This document shows, piece by piece, positions 1 through 52,005 of a stretch of DNA of 64,000 nt (position 1 is its first letter; every line of letters begins with the position of its first letter). The notes under the pieces were generated by a model, which worked only from the letters and a program-made list of their open reading frames with translations, searched no databases and was not told where the DNA came from. The stretch lies in the NCBI RefSeq assembly GCF_054482595.1, contig NZ_CM137008.1, one strand, 5' to 3'. The translations under genes were made by a program, and so were the position numbers.

Positions 1-732
1 TGGATCGCGCTTTTCACTTATATGGTGATGAGTGCGGTGATGCGTTCTCCACACGCCAGTGGTTTAAATCAAACCTTGCAGCACTACACTACTGAACATA
101 ACTCTATTGCTGATACTTTTAATTTGTCTGTGTGGCCGTTGGTTGCCGTTTTGCTGGTGATAACGCTCTGGGTGGTGATGAAAGAGTTGAAGAAGCCAAA
201 ACTCAAAGTCGCGACCTTACCGCCGCGCCGAACCGGGATCGCTCATATTCTGTTTGAAAAACGCTGGCATCCCTTTGTCACTGCTGTACTCATCGGTTTG
301 ATTGCGCTTTTAGCCTGGCCCCTGAGTGAAGCAACCGGACGCATGTTTGGGTTAGGAATCACTTCCCCAACGGCCAATATTCTGCAATTTCTGGTCGCGG
401 GTGACGTGAAATACATTAACTGGGGCGTTTTCCTGGTGTTAGGGATCTTCGTGGGGTCATTTATTGCAGCCAAAGGGAGCCGTGAGTTCCGCGTTCGCGC
501 AGCTGATGCACAAACAACATTACGTAGCGGGTTAGGTGGTGTACTGATGGGCTTCGGTGCCAGTATTGCAGGTGGTTGCTCTATCGGTAATGGACTGGTT
601 ATGACTGCAATGATGACCTGGCAGGGCTGGGTTGGCCTTGTATTTATGATTCTCGGTGTCTGGACTGCGTCCTGGCTTGTGTATGTTCGACCGCAGCGTA
701 AGGCGCGACTGGCGACTGCTGCGGCAAATTAA
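1..732 (+). CDS. yeeE: YeeE/TsuA-type thiosulfate/sulfur transporter, C-terminal part (5' end outside window)
   Basis: ORF 22..732 in frame from position 1; multi-TM protein with GGCSIG motif; followed by yeeD as in E. coli. Confidence 0.8.
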   Translation, partial: WIALFTYMVMSAVMRSPHASGLNQTLQHYTTEHNSIADTFNLSVWPLVAVLLVITLWVVMKELKKPKLKVATLPPRRTGIAHILFEKRWHPFVTAVLIGLIALLAWPLSEATGRMFGLGITSPTANILQFLVAGDVKYINWGVFLVLGIFVGSFIAAKGSREFRVRAADAQTTLRSGLGGVLMGFGASIAGGCSIGNGLVMTAMMTWQGWVGLVFMILGVWTASWLVYVRPQRKARLATAAAN

Positions 733-745
733 GTAAGGTGTAAAG

Positions 746-973
746 ATGGCGATTAAAAAGCTGGATGTGGTGACGCAGGTCTGTCCGTTTCCACTCATAG
801 AAGCAAAAGCAGCACTGGCAGAAATGACCAGCGGCGATGAGTTGGTAATTGAGTTTGATTGCACCCAGGCAACAGAAGCAATCCCACAATGGGCGGCAGA
901 AGAAGGACATGCCATCACCGATTATCAGCAGATTGGCGATGCTGCGTGGAGCATCACCGTTCAAAAAGCCTGA
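746..973 (+). CDS. yeeD: TusA-like sulfurtransferase YeeD
   Basis: 75 aa, CPFP motif (VCPFPLIEAK) typical of TusA family; adjacent to yeeE. Confidence 0.85.
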   Translation: MAIKKLDVVTQVCPFPLIEAKAALAEMTSGDELVIEFDCTQATEAIPQWAAEEGHAITDYQQIGDAAWSITVQKA

Positions 974-984
974 CCCAACATTGT

Positions 985-1008
985 CCTCCGCCGTATCAGC
1001 GGCGGAGG
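985..1008. terminator. Hairpin between convergent yeeD and sbcB, putative bidirectional terminator
   Basis: Inverted repeat cctccgccg / cggcggagg with 6-nt loop between two convergent stop codons. Confidence 0.5.
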
Positions 1009-1015
1009 CTTCAAA

Positions 1016-2443
1016 CTAGACAATCTCTTCCGCGTACTGCCAAAGCGCTTTTAACAGCGCCACTTTTTCTTTATCGTCGGCATACTGCTGCGCCAGCATC
1101 TGAATCTCTTCTGCATAGCCTTGTAAAAACTCGGGTGTGAATACCTGGCGGCGGTGCTCCAGCCAGCGTTGCTGCTCGGCATAATCCAGCGTCCCCGGGA
1201 AGTTGCGCGCCCGATAATTGAACAACAGCTTTTCAATCCGTTTATCGACAAAAGTGATATCCAGTGCCGGTAAATTACGCGGCTCGGTTTCCAGCACAAT
1301 TTTCATTGCTGCACGATCGGCGTCACTGAAAAAGCCGTTATAAAGCTGTGCATCCACGTTATCTGAAGGCGTAAACGGTTCGGCTTCCGCGAATATCGCC
1401 ACCACTTTTTCGCGCACTTGCGGATTTTCACGCAGAATTTTCAGGTTATCGAGGCAATGCTGACGATTAATTCCCAGTCGGTCGGCATCTTCCGGGCGTA
1501 GCGTATTCGCCTGGGCCAGCACCGGACATTTATTGATGTGCACCAGCTTAACCGGAACGGCGGCGTTATCGCCAAGATCGGTTTTTGCGGTATATAAACG
1601 CTCGCGCAATGTGTCGCTATCCAGTTCCAGTAATGGCGAAATGTCTCCTGCCAAATCCACCATAATTACGGCATTGCGATTTTCAGGATGCCACGCCAGC
1701 GGTGCCACCCAGCTGGTGTTGCCGCGCCATGCCCCAAACATTCCGGAAACGTGCACCAGGGGTTTCATCTGCGGAACATCAATCAACGCCATCAGTTTGT
1801 GTTTATTACGATGGGTAAAGAGATAATCAAACAGGCGTGGCTGACGCGTTTTTACCAGCTTTGCCATCGCAATAGTGGCGTACACATCAGCCATCGCATC
1901 GTGGGCGTTGCTATGTTCAATACCATTCGCTTTGGTTAAATGCTCAAGGCGAAAGCTCGGTAGACCGTCATCATTTTCAGGCCAGTTTATTCCTTCCGGG
2001 CGCAGGGCATAACAGGCACGCATAACATCCAGTAAATCCCAGCGCGAGTTATCATGCTGCCAGCTCCAGGCGTAAGGATCGTAGAAATTACGATAAAAAA
2101 CGTTGCGTGTGACTTCGTCGTCGAAACGCACATTGTTGTAGCCCAGAATACAGGTCTTCGGTACGGTAAAAAGCGAGTGAATACGGGCGGCAAACGCGGC
2201 TTCGTTTTCTCCTTTCGACCGTGCTTCCTGCGGGGTAATACCGGTAATTAATACTGCTCCAGGCTGGGGTAAATAGTCATCAGCGGGCTTGCAGTAAAAG
2301 ACTTCGGGTTCGCCGATGACATTGAATTCGCTATCGGTGCGAATGGCTGCGAACTGTGCAGGGCGATCTAACGCGGGGTGCGTGCCAAAGGTTTCGTAAT
2401 CGTGAAACAAAAAGGTAGATTGTTGCTTACCGTCATTCATCAT
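1016..2443 (-). CDS. sbcB: Exodeoxyribonuclease I
   Basis: 475 aa from internal start MMNDGKQQSTFLFHDYETFG (track ORF 1016..2515 has 24 extra N-terminal codons); exonuclease I sequence recognised. Confidence 0.93.
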   Translation of the reverse strand: MMNDGKQQSTFLFHDYETFGTHPALDRPAQFAAIRTDSEFNVIGEPEVFYCKPADDYLPQPGAVLITGITPQEARSKGENEAAFAARIHSLFTVPKTCILGYNNVRFDDEVTRNVFYRNFYDPYAWSWQHDNSRWDLLDVMRACYALRPEGINWPENDDGLPSFRLEHLTKANGIEHSNAHDAMADVYATIAMAKLVKTRQPRLFDYLFTHRNKHKLMALIDVPQMKPLVHVSGMFGAWRGNTSWVAPLAWHPENRNAVIMVDLAGDISPLLELDSDTLRERLYTAKTDLGDNAAVPVKLVHINKCPVLAQANTLRPEDADRLGINRQHCLDNLKILRENPQVREKVVAIFAEAEPFTPSDNVDAQLYNGFFSDADRAAMKIVLETEPRNLPALDITFVDKRIEKLLFNYRARNFPGTLDYAEQQRWLEHRRQVFTPEFLQGYAEEIQMLAQQYADDKEKVALLKALWQYAEEIV

Positions 2444-2645
2444 TAGGTTAAATCCGTTATTTCTGCTGTCTGCCAGAGTATCAAATATCACCGTGCTAAT
2501 CAGCTTTAGCGCCACAATTTGGCAGCGAGTGGCAACAGATCATGTCAGATAAAAATGAGAGGGTAGTCACATTTTCTTGCACTTTATTCCAGCCAGTTCA
2601 TAAGTATTTCCGTAAAAAGAACAGCTATTTGAAACTCCTGAGGGT

Positions 2646-3818
2646 TTGCTGTTGAAACGCCGTCTTATTATTGCTGCTTCTTTGTTCGTTTTTAACTTAT
2701 CGTCTGGTTTTGCGGCGGAAAACATTCCTTTTTCACCTCAGCCTCCAGAGATTCATGCCGGGTCCTGGGTATTGATGGATTACACCACCGGTCAGATCCT
2801 CACCGCGGGTAATGAGCATCAACAGCGCAATCCCGCCAGCCTGACAAAGCTGATGACGGGTTATGTCGTGGATCGCGCTATCGATAGTCATCGCATTACG
2901 CCAGACGATATTGTCACCGTGGGGCGCGATGCGTGGGCGAAAGATAATCCGGTGTTTGTCGGTTCTTCACTGATGTTTTTGAAAGAGGGCGATCGCGTAT
3001 CGGTACGTGATTTAAGCCGTGGTTTAATTGTGGATTCCGGAAATGACGCTTGTGTTGCTCTGGCTGACTATATTGCCGGTGGGCAACGGCAGTTTGTTGA
3101 AATGATGAACAACTATGCCGAGAAGCTGCATCTCAAGGATACGCATTTTGAAACAGTGCATGGTCTGGATGCACCTGGCCAGCATAGCTCGGCTTATGAT
3201 TTAGCTGTGCTTTCTCGCGCTATCATCCACGGCGAGCCCGAGTTTTATCATATGTACAGTGAGAAAAGCCTCACCTGGAACGGTATCACTCAGCAAAACC
3301 GTAACGGGTTATTGTGGGATAAAACCATGAATGTTGACGGCCTGAAAACGGGTCATACTTCTGGTGCCGGGTTTAATCTCATTGCTTCGGCTGTAGATGG
3401 GCAGCGTCGTCTCATTGCAGTGGTAATGGGGGCTGACAGTGCAAAAGGTCGTGAGGAAGAGGCAAGAAAATTACTGCGTTGGGGGCAACAAAACTTTACT
3501 ACGGTGCAAATTTTGCACCGTGGGAAAAAGGTCGGAACGGAACGCATCTGGTATGGCGATAAAGAAAATATCGCCCTGGGAACGGAACAAGAGTTCTGGA
3601 TGGTGCTACCGAAAGCCGAAATTCCACATATCAAAGCCAAATATACCCTTGATGGTAAAGAACTCACCGCGCCAATTAGCGCCCATCAGCGGGTAGGGGA
3701 AATTGAACTTTATGACCGTGATAAACAGGTGGCGCACTGGCCGCTGGTTACCCTGGAATCTGTCGGGGAAGGCAGCATGTTTTCCCGGCTGAGTGATTAT
3801 TTCCACCATAAGGCCTGA
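2646..3818 (+). CDS. dacD: D-alanyl-D-alanine carboxypeptidase (PBP6b)
   Basis: 390 aa, signal peptide, SxxK (ASLTKLM), SGN and KTG motifs; synteny sbcB-dacD-sbmC. Confidence 0.9.
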   Translation: MLLKRRLIIAASLFVFNLSSGFAAENIPFSPQPPEIHAGSWVLMDYTTGQILTAGNEHQQRNPASLTKLMTGYVVDRAIDSHRITPDDIVTVGRDAWAKDNPVFVGSSLMFLKEGDRVSVRDLSRGLIVDSGNDACVALADYIAGGQRQFVEMMNNYAEKLHLKDTHFETVHGLDAPGQHSSAYDLAVLSRAIIHGEPEFYHMYSEKSLTWNGITQQNRNGLLWDKTMNVDGLKTGHTSGAGFNLIASAVDGQRRLIAVVMGADSAKGREEEARKLLRWGQQNFTTVQILHRGKKVGTERIWYGDKENIALGTEQEFWMVLPKAEIPHIKAKYTLDGKELTAPISAHQRVGEIELYDRDKQVAHWPLVTLESVGEGSMFSRLSDYFHHKA

Positions 3819-3936
3819 CCTTTCTTTTGCAGCAGACTGGCAGGAGTGCGAGTCTGCTCGCATAATCAACACTCATTCCTTGTGGTTTTAATATTGCAAC
3901 TATACTGTATATAAAAACAGTGTTAGTGGAGGCGTC

Positions 3937-4410
3937 ATGAACTACGAGATTAAGCAGGAAGATAAACGTACCGTTGCAGGTTTCCATCTTGTTGGCCCGT
4001 GGGAGCAGACGGTAAAGAAAGGTTTTGAGCAGTTGATGATGTGGATAGATAGCAAAAATATTGTGCCGAAGGAGTGGGTTGCTGTCTATTACGACAATCC
4101 GGATGAAACACCCGCCGAAAAATTACGCTGCGACACCGTCGTGACGGTACCGAATAACTTTACGCTCCCCGAAAACAGTGAGGGCGTCATTCTGACAGAA
4201 ATTTCAGGTGGTCAGTATGCGGTGGCGGTGGCTCGTGTAGTCGGTGATGATTTTGCTAAACCCTGGTATCAGTTCTTTAATAGCCTCTTGCAGGACAGTG
4301 CCTATGAAATGTTACCAAAGCCCTGCTTCGAGGTTTACTTGAACAATGGCGCGGAAGATGGGTACTGGGATATCGAAATGTATGTTGCGGTGCAGCCAAA
4401 ACATCACTAA
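3937..4410 (+). CDS. sbmC: DNA gyrase inhibitor SbmC/GyrI
   Basis: 157 aa, recognised SbmC sequence; synteny. Confidence 0.9.
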
Positions 4411-4607
4411 TTCATCTCAGGGCGGTGTGTTGACGCGAAGACCACTCTTTTTTTGAAAGTGAAAAGAGTAAGATGCGCCTTTCAATTTTTTCGCTCCTGC
4501 CGGGAAATTACACTGTTCCCGGTTTGTCCGTCGGATAATTCAGAGGCGCGCCTTCTGGCCGACAGATGAGTTATGAGCGCTTTTAATCTTCATTACGGAG
4601 TTTCTGT

Positions 4608-5666
4608 GTGCGTGCCGATAAGTCATTAAGCCCGTTTGAAATCCGGGTATACCGCCATTACCGCATTGTGCATGGTACTCGGGTCGCGCTGGCATTCCTG
4701 CTCACTTTTCTCATTATCCGCCTGTTTACTATCCCGGAAAGCACCTGGCCGCTGGTCACCATGGTGGTGATTATGGGGCCAATCTCGTTCTGGGGGAACG
4801 TTGTCCCTCGTGCCTTCGAACGTATTGGCGGTACGGTGTTGGGTTCGATTTTAGGTCTTATCGCTCTGCAACTGGAGTTAATTTCGTTACCGCTGATGTT
4901 AGTCTGGTGCGCGGCGGCGATGTTTCTTTGCGGTTGGCTGGCGCTGGGCAAGAAACCGTATCAAGGATTATTGATTGGGGTGACGCTGGCAATTGTTGTG
5001 GGTTCCCCGACAGGTGAAATTGATACGGCGTTATGGCGAAGCGGCGATGTGATCCTCGGCTCTTTACTGGCAATGTTGTTTACCGGTATCTGGCCACAAC
5101 GCGCGTTCATCCACTGGCGCATTCAACTGGCGAAAAGTCTGACCGAGTATAATCGGGTCTATCAATCGGCATTCTCACCGAACTTACTCGAACGCCCACG
5201 TCTGGAAAGCCATCTACAAAAACTGCTGACCGATGCCGTGAAAATGCGTGGGCTGATTGCGCCCGCCAGCAAAGAAACCCGTATTCCAAAATCGATATAT
5301 GAAGGTATCCAGACCATTAATCGCAATCTGGTTTGTATGCTGGAGTTGCAAATCAATGCATACTGGGCCACGCGCCCCAGCCATTTCGTGTTATTGAACG
5401 CGCAAAAACTTCGTGATACCCAGCACATGATGCAGCAAATACTGCTGAGCCTTGTTCATGCGCTGTACGAAGGTAATCCGCAGCCGGTTTTTGCCAATAC
5501 GGAAAAATTGAACGATGCTGTGGAAGAGCTGCGTCAGTTGCTGAATAACCACCATGACCTGAAGGTTGTGGAAACACCAATCTATGGTTATGTGTGGCTG
5601 AACATGGAAACGGCACATCAGCTTGAGTTGCTATCGAGTCTGATTTGCCGGGCCTTGCGCAAATAA
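4608..5666 (+). CDS. yeeA: Inner membrane protein YeeA (FUSC-like)
   Basis: 352 aa, GTG start, N-terminal TM helices; synteny with sbmC and yeeX. Confidence 0.85.
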   Translation: MRADKSLSPFEIRVYRHYRIVHGTRVALAFLLTFLIIRLFTIPESTWPLVTMVVIMGPISFWGNVVPRAFERIGGTVLGSILGLIALQLELISLPLMLVWCAAAMFLCGWLALGKKPYQGLLIGVTLAIVVGSPTGEIDTALWRSGDVILGSLLAMLFTGIWPQRAFIHWRIQLAKSLTEYNRVYQSAFSPNLLERPRLESHLQKLLTDAVKMRGLIAPASKETRIPKSIYEGIQTINRNLVCMLELQINAYWATRPSHFVLLNAQKLRDTQHMMQQILLSLVHALYEGNPQPVFANTEKLNDAVEELRQLLNNHHDLKVVETPIYGYVWLNMETAHQLELLSSLICRALRK

Positions 5667-5837
5667 TTCCTGAACTTCAGAATCATCTTGCTGCTGCTTC
5701 GATTCAGCAAGGATAAAGGGTATGATAGTGAAAAGGGATAAAAGCATTGTCATCTGCGGCAGCTATGAGTAATGTTGGCCCTAACGAATAGCGGTTGCTT
5801 AAACGAATCCGACTCTCACATTATCAGGGGTATAAAA

Positions 5838-6167
5838 ATGGAAACTACCAAGCCTTCATTCCAGGACGTACTGGAATTTGTTCGTCTGTTCCGTCGTAAG
5901 AACAAACTGCAACGTGAAATTCAGGACGTTGAGAAAAAGATCCGTGACAACCAGAAGCGCGTCCTGTTGCTGGACAACCTGAGCGATTACATCAAGCCAG
6001 GGATGAGCGTTGAAGCAATCCAGGGCATCATCGCCAGCATGAAAGGTGACTATGAAGATCGCGTTGACGATTACATCATCAAAAATGCCGAGCTCTCCAA
6101 AGAACGCCGCGATATCTCCAAAAAGCTGAAAGCTATGGGCGAAATGAAAAACGGCGAAGCGAAGTAA
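5838..6167 (+). CDS. yeeX: UPF0265 protein YeeX
   Basis: 109 aa from internal ATG ([14 protein letters not shown]...), track ORF 5772..6167 is N-terminally extended. Confidence 0.85.
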
Positions 6168-6184
6168 TTCCTGTTTTATTCAAT

Positions 6185-6205
6185 GAGGGTTGCCCGGCAA
6201 CCCTC
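6185..6205. other. Hairpin downstream of yeeX (possible terminator)
   Basis: Perfect inverted repeat gagggttgcc / ggcaaccctc; no clear T-tract. Confidence 0.35.
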
Positions 6206-6267
6206 AGTGCTCATTGATTCTTATCTGTGTATCACCGTCATCATTCTCATCTGAGAACCTATCGAAA

Positions 6268-6480
6268 TTAGCGACAGCCTTCTTCTGTATGCAGCAAGGC
6301 AAAAACTTCTGTAACTCCATTGTTATTAACCGCACTGGTTACTAACACGTTGTGCGCTCCAGCTTCCCGTAACCAACATTTCACCAAAGATGTTTGTTCC
6401 ATACTGGCTAAATCTGCTTTGGTTACTACTCCAATGACCGGGTGATTCATGGCCCGGTAGGGCGTTTTTACCTCTAATTC
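6268..6480 (-). pseudogene. EutP/PduV-type GTPase C-terminal fragment (yoeF-like remnant)
   Basis: C-terminal part of track ORF 6268..6624 (...NHPVIGVVTKADLA...) resembles EutP/PduV C-terminus; no N-terminal G-domain present. Confidence 0.4.
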
Positions 6481-6690
6481 CTGCTTCAGCGCTGAGATTC
6501 CTGCTTGTTGCCGGAAAAGCAGGCACCTGCCGTCTGAACGGTATCGATCCGGAAGCGTATCTGCGCCATATTCTGAGCATACTGCCGGAATGGCCCTCCA
6601 ACCGTGTTGACGAACTCCTGCCATGGAACGTAGTTCTCACCAATAAATAAGCGTCAATACGGTGCTCCGTTGACGCTTACTTTAATCCGT
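6480..6690 (+). mobile_element. IS66-family remnant: 3' end of transposase (TnpC) plus terminal inverted repeat
   Basis: Translation ...CRLNGIDPEAYLRHILSILPEWPSNRVDELLPWNVVLTNK* is a typical IS66 TnpC C-terminus; followed by hairpin-like terminal sequence ending cgcttac. Confidence 0.6.
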
Positions 6691-7064
6691 TTTCTGAGCT
6701 TAGATTTTTCTGTTCCTACCCAGACCGTGGATTTGGAATTCATTTTTTGTCAGGTCAATGCTAATCGTTAAAACGGCCATAACGCACCTCCACTGGAAGG
6801 TTTATCAGTAATATCCTACCGTTGCTTCATGGTCGGGGCGTCCATTCCATTATTATCGGTTTTCCTTTCTGTTTATAAATGAAAACGCCAGCTGTATTCA
6901 GGCTGGCGTCAGGGGAAATGAAGCCTGTTGAGTGAGATTCACCGGTTCTGGTGCAGAAGCTGCAGATGGCGCAGGGTAAGGACATCTTCTCTTGCCTGCT
7001 TAATACAGGACAACAGTGCTGTTTCTGTGGTTAATGGCACTATACCCTGCATCACTGCATTGTC

Positions 7065-7259
7065 TTACAGCAACTGGTGAGGGCTGGCATAAGTTGCCGG
7101 TGTTTCGGTAGAGTCACGGTCATCCACCACGCGGAGTGAATAACCGTTTTCAGCGGCCTTATTAATCAGTTCAGTGATATTAACACCATCAATGTCAACG
7201 ACAATGTGCCCCATATCCAGCGCCTGTACGTTAACGCTGTCGGCTTCCAGTGTCATCAT
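7065..7259 (-). CDS. yeeW: YeeW-like small protein of CP4-44-type islands
   Basis: 64 aa ORF immediately downstream of toxin gene, as in CP4-44. Confidence 0.55.
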   Translation of the reverse strand: MMTLEADSVNVQALDMGHIVVDIDGVNITELINKAAENGYSLRVVDDRDSTETPATYASPHQLL

Positions 7260-7629
7260 TTCGCCTCCGGATACTTACCCAGGGTAATGTTATTTACCGT
7301 TCTGTAATTGTCGCGGGTCATCAGGCCGGTCGCCCTGCGAGCCCGGAGGATATCGATGCTGTTTATTAACTGAGAGCGGGTACAGGCGCTGAATCCCGGC
7401 TGGTCGGTAGCACCAGCGCGTATTTTTCCACGAGAAAGTTCACCGCATCACACAGTGAAATGCCTGCCTCAATATGCTGCTCAATCACACGTTCATCGGC
7501 AAAAGGTGTGTCATTCTGTGTGAGGCCATAGTGCTGGTCCAGCAGTCGGGACAGCAGTATCTGCCAGATTTCAACAGGAGACGGGCGAGAACTGGCCGCC
7601 TGCCCGGGTAATACAGGTAATGTTTTCAT
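7256..7629 (-). pseudogene. cbtA: CbtA/YeeV-family type IV toxin, frameshifted
   Basis: Track ORF 7366..7629 matches CbtA for residues 1-73 then diverges; canonical C-terminus ([17 protein letters not shown]...YPEAK) is encoded in another frame, consistent with a 1-nt deletion. Confidence 0.7.
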
Positions 7630-7717
7630 ACTGAAGATTTTCCTGATATGCAGATATAAAAATGGAAAAGTGGCGTGGTGAAAACACCAGGCCGTAGCAG
7701 AAGGCTATTCTGGAGAG

Positions 7718-8086
7718 TTAATTTTTCATTTCGGGCGTCGGATAAACAGCCAGATAAACGTAACCACAACTGCTGAGGGTATCGGCTTTGCAGGTCAGCC
7801 CTTTTGCATACAGCGTGACGGTATGCTGATGGCGGGGATTCAGTTCACCGCTGGTGAGCATGAGTTCCAGTTGTTTCATCAGCAGCGGAAAGGCCTGGTC
7901 CAGGTGGTACGCATCTGCATCGCTGAACAGGCCTCTGATACCGGCGCGGTCGGCAAGGTAATGCAACCGGTTACCCTCCTGCACCAGACGTGCCCCGAAA
8001 CAGGGCGTCACGGTGCAGGGCAGCCCCCACCAGGGGCGGTCGTGATTGTCGTCGGGAAGTGTTGTCCCGGGGAGTGTGTCTGACAC
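7718..8086 (-). CDS. cbeA: CbeA/YeeU-family antitoxin
   Basis: 122 aa, recognised YeeU/CbeA sequence, directly upstream of cbtA. Confidence 0.85.
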   Translation of the reverse strand: MSDTLPGTTLPDDNHDRPWWGLPCTVTPCFGARLVQEGNRLHYLADRAGIRGLFSDADAYHLDQAFPLLMKQLELMLTSGELNPRHQHTVTLYAKGLTCKADTLSSCGYVYLAVYPTPEMKN

Positions 8087-8159
8087 GATAAAATCCTTAC
8101 AGAAAATCGGCTAAGAATGGTCCGGTAGTGGCGATAATTCTGCTCATCAGAATTCCCAC

Positions 8160-8381
8160 TCAGTTCAGGGTGACGCTCATCAGCCGGACATACGGACCAA
8201 AACTGTCCTTACGGCGTTCAGCAAACACGGCCAGCACACCGGGAATATCCTGCACTTCACGACCGGTATACGCTTCAGCACTGCCGTGCCAGCGGTATTT
8301 ACCGGTACAGAACGGAAAAAGACGGGATGTCGGATGTTGTTGGTGAATACGCATGGCTTCACCACGGGTGATAATTTTCAT
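8160..8381 (-). CDS. yeeT: DUF987 protein YeeT
   Basis: 73 aa, conserved island backbone gene upstream of antitoxin. Confidence 0.8.
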   Translation of the reverse strand: MKIITRGEAMRIHQQHPTSRLFPFCTGKYRWHGSAEAYTGREVQDIPGVLAVFAERRKDSFGPYVRLMSVTLN

Positions 8382-8443
8382 AATGGGATACCTCTGAAGA
8401 CAGAAGATAAAAGTGAAAACAGGTGTGATGTGGTTGTGAAGGG

Positions 8444-8935
8444 TTAAAGCAGACCATGTTCGGCAAAGGAGAAAACCTGGTTGCCACCGACTATCAGATG
8501 GTCCGGCACCCGGATATCCACCAGGCCCAGTGCCTGTACCAGACGTTCGGTGATAAGCCGGTCTGCCTTACTGGGTGTGACTTCACCGGACGGGTGATTG
8601 TGTGCCAGTACCACGGCAGCGGCATTGTGGTACAGGGCGCGTTTAATCACTTCCCGGGGATGGACTTCCGTGCGGTTGATGGTGCCGGTGAAGAGGGTTT
8701 CACCGGCAATCAGCTGATTCTGGTTGTTCAGATACAGCACCCGGAATTCTTCACGCTCCAGTCCCGCCATGTTCAGAATCAGCCATTCCCGTGCTGCACG
8801 GGTGGAGGTGAAGGCCACGCCGGGTTCATGAAGATGGCGGTCCAGGGTTTTCAGGGCCCGTTGAATGAGGCTGCGCTCGCCGGGCGTCATCTCTCCGGGC
8901 AGAAAGGAAAGTTGTTGCATTGTGCTTCTCTCCAT
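8444..8935 (-). CDS. yeeS: RadC-like JAB-domain protein (YeeS family)
   Basis: HNHPSG JAMM motif; alternative start at Met6 (MQQLSFLPGEM). Confidence 0.85.
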   Translation of the reverse strand: MERSTMQQLSFLPGEMTPGERSLIQRALKTLDRHLHEPGVAFTSTRAAREWLILNMAGLEREEFRVLYLNNQNQLIAGETLFTGTINRTEVHPREVIKRALYHNAAAVVLAHNHPSGEVTPSKADRLITERLVQALGLVDIRVPDHLIVGGNQVFSFAEHGLL

Positions 8936-9415
8936 TCAGTCGATGATGCGCATAATGGCGCTGCATTCCGGATGCTGCAGGGCGTAATCCCGCAACCGGT
9001 AATAATGGACCGTCATGGCATAATTCTCCGTACGACAGGCATGATGACTGTACGTCATCAGACAGGCGGCAATACCGGCGGCTTCCGGGCTCATTTCTGC
9101 GCGGTTACCGTTCATGGCATTGAACAGTACCCATGTTTCGTCATCATCGTCATCCGGTTCGGGTGCCATAAATGCCCCGCCGTTGTTCAGGGTGTACAGA
9201 TTCCAGATACCACCGCAGTAGTCTTCGCACAGACGGTCCATCCAGCCGAAGACACGGGGCTCCAGGGTCACCCACTGTGGAATGAGGCCAAAATGCTGCG
9301 GCCAGAAGCTGATGCGCTGTTCATCAGGGACGAGGCTGGCAACCAACTGAGGCGGATTATTCTCTGGTGTTGTAGCTGAATAAATTGTGGGGGTATTCTG
9401 AGAAACGGTTTTCAT
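8936..9415 (-). CDS. Antirestriction protein (ArdB/KlcA-like)
   Basis: 159 aa with acidic stretch EPDDDDDETW; position between DUF932 and radC typical of CP4-type islands. Confidence 0.7.
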   Translation of the reverse strand: MKTVSQNTPTIYSATTPENNPPQLVASLVPDEQRISFWPQHFGLIPQWVTLEPRVFGWMDRLCEDYCGGIWNLYTLNNGGAFMAPEPDDDDDETWVLFNAMNGNRAEMSPEAAGIAACLMTYSHHACRTENYAMTVHYYRLRDYALQHPECSAIMRIID

Positions 9416-9496
9416 GAGATAACTCCTTAAATAACAAATAAATGTGTGTTTTTCAGGAACGAAAGCTGAATGATTCCCTCACTCAGGGAAACGGCA

Positions 9497-10315
9497 TCAG
9501 CGCAGGCTCTCCAGCATCGTTTCTGCCATCACCCACAATGCGCGATTGAGCTTAATGTCGGTATCAATGCTGTGAATGGCCCGGGTATGGATACGTTTTC
9601 CTTTTGCACTGCGACCGGAAATCCCGCCTTTCAGCATATTCTCCTGGATGGTCTGATATGCGCTCCACAGGTCCTTACCGTAATCCTCCCGGCGTCGCGG
9701 CGTCAGAATGTCGGCGGTGGTGACGGGCTGATGTTCGTCACCATAACGGTAAGTCAGTGCCGCCTGTGCCAGCGCCTGGCGTGCCGGTGGCGGCAGGACC
9801 AGCGACTGCATGGCATCACGCTTCTCCTCTATCCGGTCAAACACGCCCACCACCTCGTAAGCCCCTTCGATAACTTTCTCCACTACATTTCCCCGGTGTG
9901 GAACACGCACTTCCCCCAGAGACTGGCCACAGACGCACCCGTTCTGGCAGACGAACCTGAAGTAACCCGGCAGCATCTGGTAGCTGGAGGTACCGTCATG
10001 AGAGTTGAGCAGAATAATTTCAGGGACATGTTCTCCGTTTATCTCTCCGGCCCGCCGCAGACGCAGCATGTGTTTTGTGTATCCCCGGCGGCCCGGGTCG
10101 CGCACACGGGTCTGGCAGGCGAAGAACGGCTGAAAGCCTTCCCGCTGCAGATTTTCCAGGACGGTAATGGTGGGAATGTACGCATACCGTTCACTGCGGG
10201 AGGTATGCCGGTCTTCCCCAAAAATACTGGGTACATAGTGCATCAGTTCTTCGTGTGTCAGCGGACGGTCACGGCGTATCTGGTTTACATGACCAAAACG
10301 ACTTGCTAATCGCAT
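9497..10315 (-). CDS. DUF932-family protein (YfjQ/YafZ-like)
   Basis: 272 aa; conserved island backbone gene upstream of antirestriction gene. Confidence 0.7.
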   Translation of the reverse strand: MRLASRFGHVNQIRRDRPLTHEELMHYVPSIFGEDRHTSRSERYAYIPTITVLENLQREGFQPFFACQTRVRDPGRRGYTKHMLRLRRAGEINGEHVPEIILLNSHDGTSSYQMLPGYFRFVCQNGCVCGQSLGEVRVPHRGNVVEKVIEGAYEVVGVFDRIEEKRDAMQSLVLPPPARQALAQAALTYRYGDEHQPVTTADILTPRRREDYGKDLWSAYQTIQENMLKGGISGRSAKGKRIHTRAIHSIDTDIKLNRALWVMAETMLESLR

Positions 10316-10351
10316 GATTTGCTCCTTATGAATGAGTTAGCGGTATAAATG

Positions 10352-10381
10352 AAAAAGCTGCGTCTCCCGGAGAAGACGCGG
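10352..10381 (-). terminator. Rho-independent terminator ending the cargo region
   Basis: Hairpin gcgtct(loop)agacgc followed on minus strand by T-run; downstream of secreted-protein gene. Confidence 0.5.
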
Positions 10382-10525
10382 CCTGACGGGTGAAATGAAT
10401 AAGGTTTATTGTCTGAGAGGCCTTTCACTGGCGAGCCACGCATTAAGCGGCTTTCCGGTAACAATGGCTGGGGCTGTATTTACCTTTGATATTAATAATG
10501 TGCAGAGAAACGCATGGTTTACTCC

Positions 10526-10936
10526 TTAGATTTTAAGTTTGTCCTGGGCTACAACGACAGGTTTTCCGGATGTGTCGATGACTCCTACCGTCGGTACGCC
10601 ATTTTTGATTTCGAAGAACGGTTTGTTGCTACCTGAGCACAGTTGATTGTCCCCGTATTCAATCATTTGTGCTTTCCCGGTTTTCAGGTTAACTACCGAG
10701 ACAGTGTAGTCGTAGCACCAGGCACCACCACGTTCAAGCACGAAAACATAGCTGTTATCTTTATAGTTGAACTGATTCTTTGTCTGGCAATTCATACCGT
10801 CAATCTCAGTACAGGAAAACGCTTCTGTAGTATTAACGTATTTGATGTTATTTGGCAGTTTTACTTGTTTCGCAGTAGCGAAGACAGAGAACAGAATAGT
10901 TACAGCAACGAGTAAAGTTTTGATAAAAGTTTTCAT
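10526..10936 (-). CDS. Small secreted protein of unknown function (4 Cys)
   Basis: 136 aa, N-terminal signal peptide MKTFIKTLLVAVTILFSVFATA, four cysteines. Confidence 0.6.
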   Translation of the reverse strand: MKTFIKTLLVAVTILFSVFATAKQVKLPNNIKYVNTTEAFSCTEIDGMNCQTKNQFNYKDNSYVFVLERGGAWCYDYTVSVVNLKTGKAQMIEYGDNQLCSGSNKPFFEIKNGVPTVGVIDTSGKPVVVAQDKLKI

Positions 10937-10951
10937 GATAGACTCCTTAAA

Positions 10952-11440
10952 TTAGTTAACCGCAGCTACGTAGTTTTTCACCAGATACGCGAATTCATGC
11001 ACGCCAATTTCACCGAACCAAACCAGGTAGGCCGGGTCATCTAAACCAAAGTAACGGTAGCCAACAACTTCATGGGTTTTTGGGTTATAGAGTGTTACGA
11101 TAAAGTCCCAGCCGCAGGTATTGGCTTTGCAACCGTCGCCCTGGAGCCAGACTGTACCGTTAATGTTTACTGGCGTGATACCTCCACCAGGGCCATCCAT
11201 ATAGCCGCCTTTACCGAACATGCCGCTCAGTCCGACCGGTTTTAATGCTTTGTCGATAGCGGCTTTGTAGGTAGCGTCACCTTCGTACAACTCGTACGTT
11301 GATGGACACGCTCCAGGTTGTTCAGCCCAGGCTTCCGGGTTACAACTAAGTGCTTGTTTTACGGTAGCCGCTTCTGCGTTAAAGTTAAAGCCCGTGAACA
11401 GAACCGCCAGAAATAACATAAGGGTATGTAAACGTTTCAT
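10952..11440 (-). CDS. Secreted protein, possibly Ivy-like (C-K-x3-C loop)
   Basis: Internal start MKRLHTLMLFLAVLFTGFNFNAEA (signal peptide); motif GCKANTCGW resembles Ivy CKPHDCG loop but lacks His; track ORF 10952..11743 is N-terminally extended. Confidence 0.5.
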   Translation of the reverse strand: MKRLHTLMLFLAVLFTGFNFNAEAATVKQALSCNPEAWAEQPGACPSTYELYEGDATYKAAIDKALKPVGLSGMFGKGGYMDGPGGGITPVNINGTVWLQGDGCKANTCGWDFIVTLYNPKTHEVVGYRYFGLDDPAYLVWFGEIGVHEFAYLVKNYVAAVN

Positions 11441-11728
11441 TGTAAATATTCTTCCGTTGTAAATGGCGCTGGAAAATTTCTCATCAGTGAAACCTTCCGG
11501 AAGTTTCCCCCCCTTGTATGATGTATATCGCCAGTATTTTATTTCATCCCGGCTGTAATTTTTATATTCCCCGGCACGTGCAATAACGCTGACCAGAGAT
11601 ATAAGGCTCATTAATAACTTTACAGGTAATTTCATAATTAAATTTCCAGTGAGTGAATTGACAGGTGAGGGGTAAAACTTTCTCTCAGGTAATATATATC
11701 TGAAAATATTTTCAATAACACCAGACAG

Positions 11729-11755
11729 GAAAAACACCACCACAGGCGGTGGCGT
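11729..11755 (-). terminator. Putative Rho-independent terminator after patatin gene
   Basis: Stem ccacc / ggtgg with 6-nt loop followed on minus strand by tgttttt. Confidence 0.45.
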
Positions 11756-11770
11756 TTCTTTGGGGCGTCT

Positions 11771-12841
11771 TTATTTAATCCGGGCCATCGCGTTTCTCAG
11801 TGCCAAATCTGCCTCTTCCGTTATATCCAGGCTTTTCTGCAATACCGCCTCTGACCGGGTCAGTGCCTGACGTGCTGCCAGCGGTTTCCGGATATGCTCC
11901 ATCGCCAGCATCGTGTCTTCATAGCCCTGCTGACGCCAGGCGTCGGTATGTGCCGATGTAAAACTGAGCAGACCGCCGCTGTTGCCACCATCACCTGCAT
12001 ATTTCAGCCTTTTCCGGGGACGGATCTCAAGGATTGTGGTGTCCGGAAAAGCCTGGCGATCCCATAAAGAACCGTCACTCAGATGCGTCACAATCACCAT
12101 ATTGCATCCGGCATCGACCAGAGGCGTCACAGGGGTATTTCCCTGCATATTTCGCCATCCTCCCATACCACCATCACCGAACATTGTCCCCTGAACCTCA
12201 CGGGGACGGAACAGCAGGGGCAGCGCGGCTGACGCAAGCAGAGCCTCTTTCTGCTGTCCGCGGGGCAGGCTCTGGATATGCTGAAAAACGGCGTTTTTCG
12301 TGGTTCCGACACCCAGTTCAGCACGAATGCAGTCAATAATATCCTGCATGCCCCCTTCTGTGGGGTACAGCGACACATACAGCGGTAGCCCGTCTGCCAG
12401 AGCATCAGTATCAAGATAATGATCCATCAGCGCTGTCAGGGGCTCATCTGACAACAACGGCTGAGCCATCAGATTGTCAAACCCGTTGATTGTCGATATA
12501 TGGCGAAGAAGCGTCGTAAGCAGTGCTCCTGCACGTCCGGGGATCTGGCAGAGGTTCATTGCCTGGAACAATTTTTTCAGCAATGAAAAGTAAACCAATC
12601 TGTTTACCGACAGCACCTGATTATTCCCCAGATGATCCCAGAGCGCCTCCAGGCGTACGGCAGCTTCTGACAGATCGGGAGAGGCCGCGATAATGGCACC
12701 ATTGAATGCGCCAATGCTGGCCCCTGAAACCATGCTGATCTGTGTACCACACTCTGCCAGTGCCTTAACCACTCCCGCCTGATAAGCGCCCACCGCCCCG
12801 CCACCGGACAGCACCAGCCCCGTTTTCATTTCTGTACTCAT
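11771..12841 (-). CDS. Patatin-like phospholipase
   Basis: GGGAVGAYQAG oxyanion-hole motif, GASIG (GxSxG) nucleophile, DGG motif (FGDGGMGG); start overlaps upstream stop (ATGA). Confidence 0.85.
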   Translation of the reverse strand: MSTEMKTGLVLSGGGAVGAYQAGVVKALAECGTQISMVSGASIGAFNGAIIAASPDLSEAAVRLEALWDHLGNNQVLSVNRLVYFSLLKKLFQAMNLCQIPGRAGALLTTLLRHISTINGFDNLMAQPLLSDEPLTALMDHYLDTDALADGLPLYVSLYPTEGGMQDIIDCIRAELGVGTTKNAVFQHIQSLPRGQQKEALLASAALPLLFRPREVQGTMFGDGGMGGWRNMQGNTPVTPLVDAGCNMVIVTHLSDGSLWDRQAFPDTTILEIRPRKRLKYAGDGGNSGGLLSFTSAHTDAWRQQGYEDTMLAMEHIRKPLAARQALTRSEAVLQKSLDITEEADLALRNAMARIK

Positions 12842-13743
12842 GCAGCCCCCTTCTGAAATATTTCATCGACCATACTTTCAGAGAGGCGTTCTGCAGAGCA
12901 GAGGCGAGGCATGCGAACCGGTAAGTGTTCTGCAGCCTGCGTGGTTGACCAGATCACCGGATGCTGCTCTTCACTGCACCAGTCTCCCAGCCAGTTAATC
13001 GCGTCATGCCACTCGTTATCTGCCTGCTCCCGGCCCTGACCACCAAGCCAGTCCAGAGTGTTCAGACGCACGGTTGCACTACCGCCACTCTCCTGTGCCA
13101 TCTGCGTTAATGCTTTATGTCTGAGAATATCCAGTAGCTGGTTAACCTGGCCTGTTTCGCCCTGACGTATCACATCACCAAACGCGCCCCAGCGAAGCTC
13201 TTCAAGTGCCACATAACAACGTCCGGCAGGGGAAAATGACGCATATCGCCCGGCGCTCCACCATGAGAATATCTGCTCAAGATGTAACTGCGCCCGCTGA
13301 ACCTGGTCAACACGGTGGAGTTTTTCTTCAAGATGATTCAGTTTATGGTGAACCTGATCGGCCAGGGTGAGTAACTGCTCCCGCGTATCTGCGGAATAAT
13401 GCGCCAGCCTGGCTGTATCACTGACCAGTGAACTGACCCTGTCGTTTACCCGGGTAATCGCGTAGTTTGTGGTGGCAAGTGACGTTGTCATCTCCGTCAG
13501 CCAGCGCAGGGACGCCTCAACGCCCTGTGCAAGCGACGCATTGATGGCATTCTGCCGTGCAGCGCCTTCGCCGGTCAGCCCCTCTTTTAAACGCCGGAAG
13601 AACGTGCGCTCTCCGGCCGTGCGGATATGCTCCTGTGCAACATCGATTCCGTTTGCGAAATCAACCACAAATTTTTCAGGAAGACAGGTGAGTACCTGAC
13701 ATACCCGGTTATCAGCAATTTGTTGAATAAATGGTGAAGTCAC
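12838..13743 (-). CDS. Hypothetical coiled-coil protein, middle gene of operon
   Basis: 301 aa, helical/heptad-rich, no recognised domain; ATGA overlaps with both neighbours. Confidence 0.7.
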   Translation of the reverse strand: MTSPFIQQIADNRVCQVLTCLPEKFVVDFANGIDVAQEHIRTAGERTFFRRLKEGLTGEGAARQNAINASLAQGVEASLRWLTEMTTSLATTNYAITRVNDRVSSLVSDTARLAHYSADTREQLLTLADQVHHKLNHLEEKLHRVDQVQRAQLHLEQIFSWWSAGRYASFSPAGRCYVALEELRWGAFGDVIRQGETGQVNQLLDILRHKALTQMAQESGGSATVRLNTLDWLGGQGREQADNEWHDAINWLGDWCSEEQHPVIWSTTQAAEHLPVRMPRLCSAERLSESMVDEIFQKGAA

Positions 13744-16136
13744 AGCATTGTCTCCAGCTCTTCCCTCAGCGCCTTACTGTCAGTAATGAGCTCAGGAACC
13801 CTTTCATTTAATGCCTGAAGTCGCCCGGTAAGTCGTTCCTGCGCCTGCTGATCGCGTTTATGATCCTCAGAGCTCTGAATCAGCGTGTTACGCAGTTGTT
13901 CAACTTTCTCCCTGAATGCGCAGAAAAAGGCATCGATTTCCTGGCGGACGGGCTGGTTAATATCCTGCTCAATGGATGCCTGCAGCTCCCCGAAATATGC
14001 CCGGGTCAGTGACATAACTTCCTCTCTGACCTTGTTGATATTGATCACGCTGCGACTCACATCCTCGTCATAGTTTTCCCAGCCCAGGTCACTGGTGCCA
14101 AACCATCGACAAACGGTTCCCCATACGCCACTCTGCCGACGGCGACGGGTGACGGTCTCCGTTCTTTCCTCCATAAGCGCACTCAGATTTATTTTTACCG
14201 CGAGCCGGGTCTGTAACTGGCTGACTGCCGGAAAACTGATTTTTACGGTAAAGCCCTCATCCTCCAGGCGGGCATTGATGCGACCGGCAATGTTTTCTGT
14301 GGCGTACAGGGCCGTGCCACGAAAACCTGTTTCAATCCCGCTGACGATTTTCTCCAGCTCAGGCCGGAACTGTGCTTCAGCCTCACGGTGCAGGCTGGTC
14401 ACGGTCGATTCGATTTGCGTCATCAGTTCAAGGGCTTCCCTGCGATCACTGAATTTTATTTCGGGGCTGTCCGGGGCAAAATCTCGTTTCCTGTAATCCT
14501 CCCGGCCCTGGTTGTTGATACCGGACCATTGAGAAATTTTCCCCCATAATCCGGACTGAGACCTTCGTTGTTCTGCGTCTTCTTCCTCCAGCATTTGCTG
14601 TTCTTTGCGTTTACCGCTTCTGAAATAGTCATTCAGCTCCTCTTCCAGTGAGGTGCAGACCCCCGTCAGTAATTCCCGGGTTTTAGTATCGATCTCCTCC
14701 ATGGCCATTCTGACATCAGTGGTCATCTGCTCCTGACAGTCCGCGATTTCCCGGATATCCGCAAGCAGGCTGGTGATATGCGACTGCAGTGACTGAATGC
14801 TTTGCTGTAGCCCCTGATGGCGTAACAACAGGTATTCACTGATATTTTCTGCATTCTGCATCAGTTTTGCGGCGGCAGAGTCAACCGCCAGTGCCGCAGC
14901 TCTGGAATGTGAGCTCTGTATGACTTCCGTTATCAGTTGATCGATAAGTGAGCCTTCCCACAGGTCTGTCGCCCCTTCAGTTGCCAGTTCACTGTCTTTA
15001 CAGACGTATTCTTTTTTCATGCAACCGAAGGCACCTCTGATAAAATCATCGACCCAGGCTTCATCAACAGGAAGGGTTCCGTTTTTCCGTAACTCATGAA
15101 GCGCACGGTTAGCCAGGTATGCCTGGCGTGAGGATCCGGGATAAACGCGGGAGGCGGGCAGCACATCGCTGTTCAGCATTGCCGGAACTTTCTGGCGTAC
15201 GGCATCTGCCCCATCGCCATTGCGGTCTTTCTCATCAAATTTATTGACCAGTACAAACAGGCGGCCGGCTGATACGTCAGCAATGGCATTAAGCTCTTTA
15301 CGGACGTCTTCATCCGCTTTTGAGTTCATCTGGGTGTAATCCATCACAGCCAGAACCGCAGAGGCTTTCTGCAGTTGATCCCGCATCATCACTTCCATCT
15401 GCGGTTGTCCGGCCTCATTAGGGCCGGGGGTATCCAGCAGTGTGAGTGTTCCCTGGCATGCATCCATCCCCACCAGATGGCTGAATTCCACGTCGATCAC
15501 CGGCAGTTTCTGCACTTCTGCGTATTCATCAAAAGGAAATTCAGTCCCCATTGCCGCAGCAAGACGAACCAGATCGTTTAACGATGCCAGTCCGGTAAAG
15601 ATTTCCTCCTCCCCGTGGTATTCATTTTTGAGCCAGCCATCATCCGTCAGAATATCCAGCAGTTCGCGGGTATCCCCGGTTTGCTGCAGGGTCTGTGCGA
15701 CCTGCTGTCCTGCCGGGGTGGCGAGTTTTTCCTGCAGTGTGATTAATAAATTGCGGACAGGCTGAATATGTTCCAGATGGAGAACCGGCTCAGTTTTTCC
15801 GGGAACGTGGCGGATGAGCGTCGGTACAGAGGTCATGGGGCGGTTACGGTTAGGCAGAATTTCCTGCCCCACAATGGCATTGATGGTGGTTGATTTGCCT
15901 GCTTTCATCGTGCCGACAACAGCCAGCACCATCTCCCTGCGGGCGGTTTTGATTTGTTCGCCCTCCAGCTCCTCAATTCTTTTCAGTGCTTTCTGTTTAT
16001 CAAAAAGCAGTCTGTTTTCGTTCTTACTGTCAGATAACACATCTGGCTCCTCAACCATTTGCCGGAGCAGATTAATGTTCAGTTGCAAAAGTCGGTCGGC
16101 TTCATCACAAAGCAGGGCGATGTTCTTTTCGTGCAT
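13740..16136 (-). CDS. Dynamin-like GTPase (bacterial dynamin family)
   Basis: 798 aa; G1 GTMKAGKST, G3 DTPG, G4 NKFD, long helical C-terminal region. Confidence 0.85.
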   Translation of the reverse strand: MHEKNIALLCDEADRLLQLNINLLRQMVEEPDVLSDSKNENRLLFDKQKALKRIEELEGEQIKTARREMVLAVVGTMKAGKSTTINAIVGQEILPNRNRPMTSVPTLIRHVPGKTEPVLHLEHIQPVRNLLITLQEKLATPAGQQVAQTLQQTGDTRELLDILTDDGWLKNEYHGEEEIFTGLASLNDLVRLAAAMGTEFPFDEYAEVQKLPVIDVEFSHLVGMDACQGTLTLLDTPGPNEAGQPQMEVMMRDQLQKASAVLAVMDYTQMNSKADEDVRKELNAIADVSAGRLFVLVNKFDEKDRNGDGADAVRQKVPAMLNSDVLPASRVYPGSSRQAYLANRALHELRKNGTLPVDEAWVDDFIRGAFGCMKKEYVCKDSELATEGATDLWEGSLIDQLITEVIQSSHSRAAALAVDSAAAKLMQNAENISEYLLLRHQGLQQSIQSLQSHITSLLADIREIADCQEQMTTDVRMAMEEIDTKTRELLTGVCTSLEEELNDYFRSGKRKEQQMLEEEDAEQRRSQSGLWGKISQWSGINNQGREDYRKRDFAPDSPEIKFSDRREALELMTQIESTVTSLHREAEAQFRPELEKIVSGIETGFRGTALYATENIAGRINARLEDEGFTVKISFPAVSQLQTRLAVKINLSALMEERTETVTRRRRQSGVWGTVCRWFGTSDLGWENYDEDVSRSVININKVREEVMSLTRAYFGELQASIEQDINQPVRQEIDAFFCAFREKVEQLRNTLIQSSEDHKRDQQAQERLTGRLQALNERVPELITDSKALREELETML

Positions 16137-40222: not shown

Positions 40223-40932
40223 ATCATGTAAACAAACTCATCGAATTGCACCTCCTGTTTGTGGAGGTGCTTTTTTGTGCACAGCTCCCCAGCCAGGCTG
40301 GGGGTTCCGGAAAGCTTTCAGTTTTGAGCCAGTTATTAAAACCTCTTTTGATTTGTTAAAACACCTTGCGGTATGGCAACAGCAAGTGTCAAACAAAAAA
40401 TCAAAAGGGGGACCCAATGGGGAACGAAAAGAGCTAGCGCACCCCGATGGAACTGTAAATATCACATAGTTTTTGCGCCAAAATACCGAAGACAAGTGTT
40501 CTACAGAGAGAAGCGTAGAGCAACAGGCAGTATTTTGAGAAAGCTGTGTGAGTGGAAAAGCGTACGGATTCTTGAAGCTGAGTGCTGTGCAGATCATATC
40601 CATATGCTTGTGGAGATCCCGCCCAAAATGAGCGCATCCGGCTTTATGGGATATCTGAAAGGGAAAAGCAGTCTGATGCTTTACGAGCAGTTTGGTGATT
40701 TGAAATTCAAATACAGGAACAGGGAGTTCTGGTGCAGTGGGTACTAAGTCGATACGGTGGGTAAGAACACGGCGAAGATACAGGATTACATAAAGCACCA
40801 GCTTGAAGAGGATAAAATGGGAGAGCAGTTATCGATTCCCTACCTGGGCAGCGCGTTTATGGACCGTGAGTAACGAAGTTGGATGCAAATGTCAGATCGT
40901 GTGCGCCTGTTAGGGCGCGGCTGGTAAGAGAG
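40223..40932 (+). mobile_element. IS200 (IS200/IS605 family) inserted in dgoT
   Basis: Left-end hairpin cacctcctgtttgtggaggtg; TnpA with HxH motif; dgoT reading frame runs into IS sequence at about 40932. Confidence 0.7.
40373..40870 (+). pseudogene. tnpA: IS200 Y1 transposase TnpA, frameshifted
   Basis: Track ORF 124 aa (WNCKYHIVFAPKYRR...DHIHMLVEIPPK); canonical N-terminus and C-terminus lie in other frames. Confidence 0.65.
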
Positions 40933-45940: not shown

Positions 45941-47238
<1,298 letters not shown>

Positions 47239-50699: not shown

Positions 50700-52005
50700 G
50701 CAAATAATATGCACATATTTTTTAGTGTAATGAGTGACTTTTATGGATAGGTTCCCGCTGACCTCTATCACCATACTTCCCCCCGCTTTCAGTAGGACAT
50801 CCGTGTCTGACTTTATATCGAGATTTCATGTGGAAGAGATAAATGCCGGACCTTGAGAAAGAAATATAACTCCCCAGTCTCGTTGAACCCTCTTGTTGAT
50901 CCACTTTTCAAGTACGTAACGATCCAAGTTCCGCCTGCCGTCCAAGGCGTTTGGTGAAGCAGCACGGTCCGTCACTGTCAGCCCACAACTTCCGCTCCCA
51001 CGGGCGCGCCACCGCGCTCTTCTTCTCATTCACCTTCTGTTTCAGTTTGCTCTCCACGAACGCCCTGATGTCCTTCAGCAGATGGTCGCCCGCTTTCCGG
51101 CTGCTTACGTAGATGTTGCAGTCGTCTGCGTAGCGGCAGAAGCTGTGTCCACGATGGCGCTTAACTGCTGCGCTATCGCCTGCTGGATAAGCCTGTCCAC
51201 CACCGTCGGGATGCCTAAGGTTCTCACGCCGCCATCCGGCTTCGGGATATCCATCCGGCGTATTGCCCGCGGCTGGTAGTTTCCGTCAATCAATACCTGC
51301 CATACGCTGCGCCAGTTCTTCTTCAGCCACGGTTTCAACTCCGCCACACCTTTGTTTTCCACCACGCGCTGATAAGCCAGCATCAGGTTTTCTCTCGTTA
51401 TCACCGCTTCCATCGTCAGCGGCACTTCCGCTTTCGTTTGCCCACCCGCCGCCGTGCTGATTTCAGCGCCATCATGCAGCCCTGACGGATACTGTCCGTC
51501 TCCTCTGCCGCTGGCCGCAGTTGCCTGCGCGTGTGCTTCATTAATCATCATCGGGTTCGGATGTCCTAATCACAGTTAATCATGTTCGGCCCTTCATGCT
51601 GCCGGTTTTGCAGCACTACTACGGCGTCGGCTGACTTCTGCCGCCCCATCCCGGCGCCTCACGGCACCGGTAGCACACTGGCAGGGCGACAGATCTCCCG
51701 GGGTAATTCACGCGACTTTCCTGCTTATGCCTGTCGGCTTTACGTCACAGCGTTCCGTGTGAGTATCGGGCTTTGGTGATTTGTGCCACCTTACCCTGCT
51801 GCGCCGCCTTAACCGCTTCCTGTTCGTCAGGCCAGCATTTTGCATCCGGCTTCCTTCAGATTTCACCTCGCGATGAACACCCTTGCCTTCCGCTAACACT
51901 TCCCCTCACCGGGTGTGTGGAGGACTTTCACCTCTTAGTCGTTCTTCAGCCACCACAGTTGAAGAACAGCGCCAGTCACGGCGCTACGCGCCATGCCCGG
52001 CGCAC
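50700..52005 (-). mobile_element. Group II intron fragment (5' domains plus truncated intron-encoded protein)
   Basis: Minus-strand GTGCGCC 5' consensus at about 52005; RT-like ORF 51105..51551; 3' part missing. Confidence 0.5.
51105..51551 (-). pseudogene. Group II intron reverse transcriptase/maturase, N-terminal fragment
   Basis: ...TRENLMLAYQRVVENKGVA...RRMDIPKPDGGVRTLGIPTVVDRLIQQA typical RT domains 0-2; truncated. Confidence 0.65.

Follow-up and report, generated by a model that had tools for sequence, protein, structure and literature searches.

A frameshifted cbtA allele beside an intact cbeA gene at the tmaR/yeeA-proximal end of a CP4-44-type island in Escherichia coli

RESULTS AND DISCUSSION

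Genes at the cbeA-cbtA locus

The DNA analyzed, called "the window" here, is a stretch of 64,000 nucleotides from contig NZ_CM137008.1 of RefSeq assembly GCF_054482595.1, and positions refer to this stretch if not indicated otherwise. On its minus strand, yeeS (RadC-like JAB domain, 8444-8935), yeeT (DUF987, 8160-8381), cbeA (yeeU, 7718-8086), cbtA (yeeV, 7256-7629), and yeeW (DUF5983_N, 7065-7259) follow each other as a conserved block, with yeeS and yeeT as the upstream neighbors of the toxin-antitoxin genes. The locus forms the right-hand end of an island beside tmaR and yeeA, which is the position of the cryptic prophage CP4-44 in K-12, and this CP4-44-type synteny, yeeS-yeeT-cbeA-cbtA-yeeW adjoining tmaR and yeeA, was found in the window, in K-12, and in ATCC 11775. 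A block of 1,061 nt is 99.7% identical to its K-12 counterpart, with CbeA being one residue off and YeeW being identical. Two things set the window apart from CP4-44 of K-12. The cbtA gene is without one base in codon 74 and carries in addition an L38Q substitution, which leaves an open reading frame (ORF) of 87 instead of 124 codons. Moreover, yeeS is preceded by antirestriction, DUF932, patatin-like, RdcB-family, and dynamin-family genes in the window but by yeeR and flu in K-12.

The cbeA gene is an intact type IV antitoxin gene with an ORF for 122 aa starting with GTG. The product is 99.2% identical to CbeA of K-12, the sole difference being G108 instead of D108, and matches positions 1-100 of the 101 positions of Pfam family CbeA_antitoxin (PF06154) with 178.5 bits and an E value of 4e-53. 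This intact ORF with a full-length family match is situated 88 nt upstream of cbtA, separated from it by an intergenic spacer (7630-7717, minus strand) that is identical to that of K-12. The RefSeq relatives contain the same CbeA protein, WP_001285585.1.

On the other side of cbtA, yeeW is intact, and its product of 64 aa is 100% identical to YeeW of K-12. The ATG of yeeW overlaps the original stop codon of cbtA (ATGA), and a GGAGG motif of its own is located four bases upstream. Since this ribosome-binding site has been kept, an early stop in cbtA need not affect yeeW. YeeW comprises here the DUF5983 N-terminal domain only and is followed by a DUF957 fragment. DUF5983/ANF00264 ORFs beside cbtA, with a possible programmed frameshift there, were the subject of a paper from 2026 (PMC13294457).

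The lesion in cbtA

With 374 nt, the cbtA pseudogene is 1 nt shorter than expected. In the nucleotide alignment of K-12 cbtA (yeeV) with the window, the 375 positions contain one gap, one mismatch, and no other difference. The gap is a 1-bp deletion between positions 7409 and 7410; the K-12 base missing there is G when read on the gene strand and C on the plus strand. The deletion falls into codon 74, and the frame is lost after residue 73. The mismatch at position 7517 is a T>A change (CTG>CAG on the gene strand, which is the minus strand) and leads to L38Q at a nearly invariant position of the family. The 22-nt deletion junction occurs a single time in the window, with no occurrence expected by chance.

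The remaining ORF (7366-7629, minus strand) extends from an ATG at 7629 over 87 codons to a stop codon at 7366-7368 and encodes residues 1-73 of CbtA plus 14 unrelated out-of-frame residues. The out-of-frame remnant (7256-7408, minus strand) encodes residues 75-124 and ends with the original TGA stop codon (7256-7258), so that the C-terminal 50 residues of CbtA are read in the frame one base over. A tblastn search with K-12 CbtA returned residues 1-73 at 98.6% identity in one frame and residues 75-124 at 100% identity in another, and no CbtA locus elsewhere in the window. The match to Pfam family CbtA_toxin (PF06755), which has a gathering score of 25 bits, was split in the same way at profile positions 73/74 into two pieces that both exceed this score: positions 1-73 with 125.8 bits (E = 1e-36) and, in the other frame, positions 74-112 with 51.1 bits (E = 1.6e-13). 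A single ORF spanning the whole CbtA_toxin domain (profile positions 1-112, about 124 aa) is absent from the window.

An earlier note on this DNA, made from its letters alone, had claimed that the toxin ORF matches CbtA for about 73 residues before it leaves the frame, that the C-terminal region is encoded in another frame, in line with a single-base deletion, and that the antitoxin is full length. The present analysis, which includes the alignment to K-12 yeeV that the note had proposed as a check, agrees with all of this: one G is missing and L38Q comes in addition, the match comprises exactly 73 residues, and the lesion is contained in the interval 7380-7420 that had been suggested for inspection.

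The loss of a single base in codon 74 shifts the frame and leads to a stop 14 codons on, and the sole possible product is an 87-aa protein without the conserved C-terminal 51 residues. Separate expression of the C-terminal half was considered and ruled out because the C-terminal frame offers no ATG, GTG, or TTG start codon except for an internal ATG, which would give 21 aa.

Alternatively, the frameshift may be a regulatory device, with the full-length toxin being restored by a programmed -1 ribosomal frameshift or by transcriptional slippage. A -1 shift anywhere in the overlap of about 27 codons would join both halves, but an in-frame slippery heptamer of the X XXY YYZ type does not occur anywhere in cbtA, and programmed frameshifting or slippage was rejected for this reason. 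A GAA AAA T stretch is present six codons upstream of the deletion; however, intact alleles have these five A's as well, and such a run is too short for efficient transcriptional slippage. In addition, 38 homologs of the family encode one continuous ORF, and two of the substitutions found in carriers of the deletion, D76E and I115T, are downstream of the break and hit conserved residues. Recoding is accordingly hardly conceivable as an explanation.

Scans for promoter and terminator consensus motifs between positions 6000 and 10500 gave results at or near the expectation from shuffled sequences, with no signal attributable to the lesion.

Distribution of the frameshifted allele in E. coli

A 921-nt segment with cbeA, cbtA, and yeeW was found with 100% identity in at least 40 independent complete genomes, comprising all matches listed. 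These came from the type strain ATCC 11775, from APEC O1, and from isolates from humans, poultry, dogs, pigs, and water, and the genomes matching this segment have a median of three such places each. The RefSeq pseudogenes "cbtA, frameshifted" of ATCC 11775 (EAS44_RS10510) and APEC O1 (APECO1_RS11150) are identical to the window over these 921 nt and are placed in the same way with respect to cbeA and yeeW, so that there is no difference within the finding; elsewhere, ATCC 11775 and the window are about 0.8% different over 16 kb.

In a set of 5,426 complete E. coli genomes, the exact 81-nt frameshift junction was the best match in about 1,486 records (about 27%) and the intact 82-nt junction of K-12 in 1,776 records, with the two counts possibly overlapping because the genomes hold several paralogous loci, and with queries so short that any mismatch or gap takes the identity below 99%. 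Carriers of the frameshift include ATCC 11775, APEC O1, O157:H7, O55:H7, and O111:NM. The arrangement cbeA-cbtA-yeeW-DUF957 fragment was present in all 16 fetched carriers with a stretch reaching the flank, and tmaR and yeeA were adjacent in all six carriers with wider flanks (ATCC 11775, APEC O1, O157:H7, O111:NM, MS7163, and GPEC1258). The RefSeq/PGAP label was "cbtA, frameshifted" in every carrier examined. In the protein collection, the 87-aa ORF exists in a Q38 and an L38 version, each on at least 1,000 contigs, and its cluster contains 236 distinct sequences. A search of contigs representing one genome per species for the junction pattern, with or without the G, gave no matches; since the pattern does match the window and also six E. 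coli loci that were fetched, the empty result is not taken as a sign of absence.

Evaluation of this distribution needs to consider the possibility that an error in sequencing or assembly created the frameshift and that the real gene is an intact cbtA of 124 codons. Single-base indels are the most common assembly error, and no other point was in favor of this explanation. The deleted G, however, is flanked by C and T on the gene strand of the K-12 alignment (GGTGC[G]TACC) and is not part of a homopolymer, which rules out the homopolymer error that the earlier note had offered as one of two explanations. The identical allele is present in about 1,486 complete genomes from many groups, and lineage-specific secondary mutations exist, which are possible only for an inherited allele. 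The continuous 124-aa frame, the return of which upon independent sequencing the earlier note had named as evidence against a frameshift, is not restored in well over 1,000 independent assemblies. Because the site is not a homopolymer and the same locus and junction are present in about 1,486 genomes, a sequencing error is excluded for the allele, and an intact gene misread in the window is extremely improbable. The deletion is real and inherited, and as an allele it segregates widely in E. coli. The other explanation offered, an island in decay in which the toxin has really been inactivated, is supported by the identical 921-nt segment, the roughly 1,486 junction records, the PGAP label "frameshifted," and the flanking gene fragments, with the inactivation as such being deduced from the sequence.

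The same tmaR/yeeA-adjacent locus of SaT040 (locus positions 1304-2795) contains an intact cbtA with an R106S substitution, a cbeA gene with a divergent N terminus, and an extra gene for a hypothetical protein of 214 aa between yeeT and cbeA. Since cbtA is intact at this same site, intact and frameshifted alleles, and with them several module variants, share this position in the species.

In a comparison of window positions 4608-8086 with eight loci, the cbeA-cbtA-yeeW block was 0-0.8% diverged across very different serotypes, and the adjoining yeeA was up to 1.8% diverged. The sequences suggest that the block may have been exchanged between lineages by recombination.

Further changes on the frameshift background

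The cbtA genes of 15 carriers contain seven independent point changes, A12T, L38Q, A62V, N64S, V73M, D76E, and I115T. All seven are nonsynonymous in the ancestral frame, and six are located at invariant or nearly invariant columns, in a tally that is small (seven events) and that comes from strains taken from a ranked list and not sampled by phylogeny. A portion of 76% of random single-base changes in cbtA is nonsynonymous, so that seven of seven is unremarkable under neutrality (p of about 0.14); a working protein should be under purifying selection, which would make this outcome very unlikely. L38Q is confined to the window, ATCC 11775, and APEC O1, and the other 12 frameshift carriers have L38 as does K-12. 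With Q38 in only 3 of 15 frameshift carriers, L38Q arose after the deletion.

Other carriers have more severe lesions. A second 1-bp deletion is present near codon 9 of the frameshifted cbtA in T16R (locus 601-976), and in TBU0218_10-1CC (locus 858-2695), IS1203 is inserted into the frameshifted cbtA and most of cbeA is lost. Among the protein variants of the 87-aa ORF are R15H, V19I, and D40N, which change determinant or invariant residues. The carriers examined have gathered further, apparently unconstrained damage in cbtA, as would be expected of a dead toxin gene in neutral decay. The 3' end of the T16R cbtA looks recombined with a paralog.

Among 38 homologs, with identities down to 66%, residues R74, D76, G79, S86, L88, S91-R98, G102, L103, Y109, and G118 are invariant. 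No stretch of the family is more conserved than the C-terminal part that the ORF has lost, and SIDILRAR is the longest invariant run in these 38 homologs.

These observations have to be weighed against a reading in which the truncated 87-aa product is made and is partly active, for instance by binding to FtsZ and/or MreB, which would leave an attenuated but working toxin-antitoxin pair. R15 is needed for the interaction with MreB and F65 for that with FtsZ (Heller et al., PMC5624674). Both are within the retained residues 1-73 and are kept in the 87-aa ORF, but variants of this ORF with R15H, V19I, or D40N exist. In favor of this reading, the window does not differ from K-12 in the start codon of cbtA, the cbeA-cbtA spacer, or the upstream operon. 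All seven point changes are nonsynonymous nevertheless, and five of them are in codons 1-73, four at conserved positions (L38, A62, N64, and V73). C-terminal truncations of YeeV reportedly still caused cell elongation in the work of Tan et al. from 2011; the part missing here, on the other hand, includes SIDILRAR, the longest invariant run. In an AlphaFold model of the repaired CbtA, the only moderately confident fold is formed by three helices, in residues 18-69 and with pLDDT values of 70-86, that are wholly upstream of the break, in a model that is weak overall (mean pLDDT of 59) and gives a weak hint on the domain layout only; no solved CbtA structure was found, the best E value in the PDB being 0.11. 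Finally, the allele is very common, with about 27% of the complete genomes, but the second deletion and the IS1203 insertion are secondary inactivations. Partial activity of the truncated product is unlikely in view of these data.

The deletion may also be a selected allele. Selection may have favored loss of the C terminus, with recombination carrying it across phylogroups; alternatively, the N-terminal helical domain of 73 residues may be a milder binder of FtsZ/MreB that is checked by CbeA. If true, this would explain the presence of a broken allele in about a quarter of the genomes together with an antitoxin ORF that is almost always intact, but such selection appears quite improbable.

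None of the 15 aligned carriers has a damaged cbeA ORF. The gene differs among carriers by four nonsynonymous changes (R17H, P23S, L62P in O157:H7, and M76V) versus one synonymous change, and cbeA may be drifting, too, without selective retention.

A probably degenerate type IV toxin-antitoxin module

At a probability of roughly 0.88, what is left at this end of the CP4-44-type island, next to tmaR and yeeA, is a type IV toxin-antitoxin module that has degenerated, with a dead cbtA and an intact cbeA. A functional type IV module should have intact genes for the toxin and for the antitoxin, and here the toxin gene is frameshifted and a RefSeq pseudogene. The CbtA toxin is probably non-functional, because the C-terminal part is conserved in the family and cannot be made separately, because there is no slippery heptamer, and because damage kept accumulating.

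In this degenerate module, cbeA would persist as an orphan antitoxin ORF that is presumably costless to keep. [quoted passage not shown] Because of this cross-neutralization and of the median of three places per genome, an orphan CbeA could buffer paralogous toxins, that is, neutralize CbtA-family toxins from other loci of the same genome; drift without function is just as conceivable. CbeA was described as acting on the targets of the toxin and not on the toxin itself (PMC5371832; PMC3827094), so it could in principle act without the cognate toxin. With four nonsynonymous changes to one synonymous change in cbeA among carriers, retention for cross-protection is no better supported than simple persistence of a gene "not yet hit"; both explain the intact cbeA equally well.

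The paralogous pairs ykfI-yafW on CP4-6 and ypjF-yfjZ on CP4-57 resemble cbeA-cbtA in containing the same two Pfam families, in residing on the same kind of island, and in cross-neutralization. They differ in being separate loci with toxins that are 58-62% identical to CbtA, and neither is present in the window.

Decay of chromosomal toxin-antitoxin systems with the toxin being hit first was described for ccdO157 and for the hok-sok copies of K-12 (PMC2654758). As in the case of cbtA, the toxin was disabled by a small mutation or an insertion sequence (IS), the partner was left behind, and the outcome is polymorphic in the species (PMC2654758). The difference is in the type of the systems, type II and type I for ccdO157 and hok-sok, respectively, and type IV for cbeA-cbtA.

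The allele is already known as a frameshifted pseudogene annotated by RefSeq in many genomes and is an ordinary feature of these. A paper discussing this particular cbtA allele was not found in the literature searched. A genome-wide association study on microcin J25 resistance links a "specific sequence of cbtA" to this trait, with the variant not being identified in the text.

For annotation, this would mean that cbtA should be listed here as a pseudogene and should not be "repaired" as an assembly error, which has little importance beyond annotation hygiene. Carriers such as ATCC 11775, APEC O1, and O157:H7 differ from K-12 at the cbeA-cbtA locus, and this difference is relevant to any transfer of results obtained with CbtA and CbeA of K-12 to pathogenic lineages. 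Being so frequent, the allele is a convenient natural case in which the decay of a type IV toxin-antitoxin module can be studied.

The surrounding island

The region between yeeW and tmaR (6268-7031) is a worn island end that carries three gene remnants, the DUF957 fragment (6939-7031), a transposase fragment (6513-6650), and a remnant of an EutP/PduV-family gene (6268-6450). All three were mapped from the PGAP annotation of ATCC 11775, with positions 1-16120 of the ATCC 11775 locus being collinear with positions 16120-1 of the window. In a close relative, the island interior contains many further pseudogenes and IS fragments. Because of these and of the remnants at the yeeW-tmaR end, "decaying island" is a fair label.

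Rfam searches of the window identified the small RNA isrC at 46049-46171 (plus strand, 150 bits), STnc490 at 40284-40407 (plus strand, 122 bits), and group II intron domains at 51589-51877 (minus strand, 140 and 72 bits). These matches indicate that the island beside yeeA is far larger than CP4-44 of K-12 and differently composed. According to the collinear annotation of ATCC 11775, genes for a patatin-like phospholipase, an RdcB-family protein, and a dynamin-family protein are adjacent to each other on the minus strand at 11771-16136.
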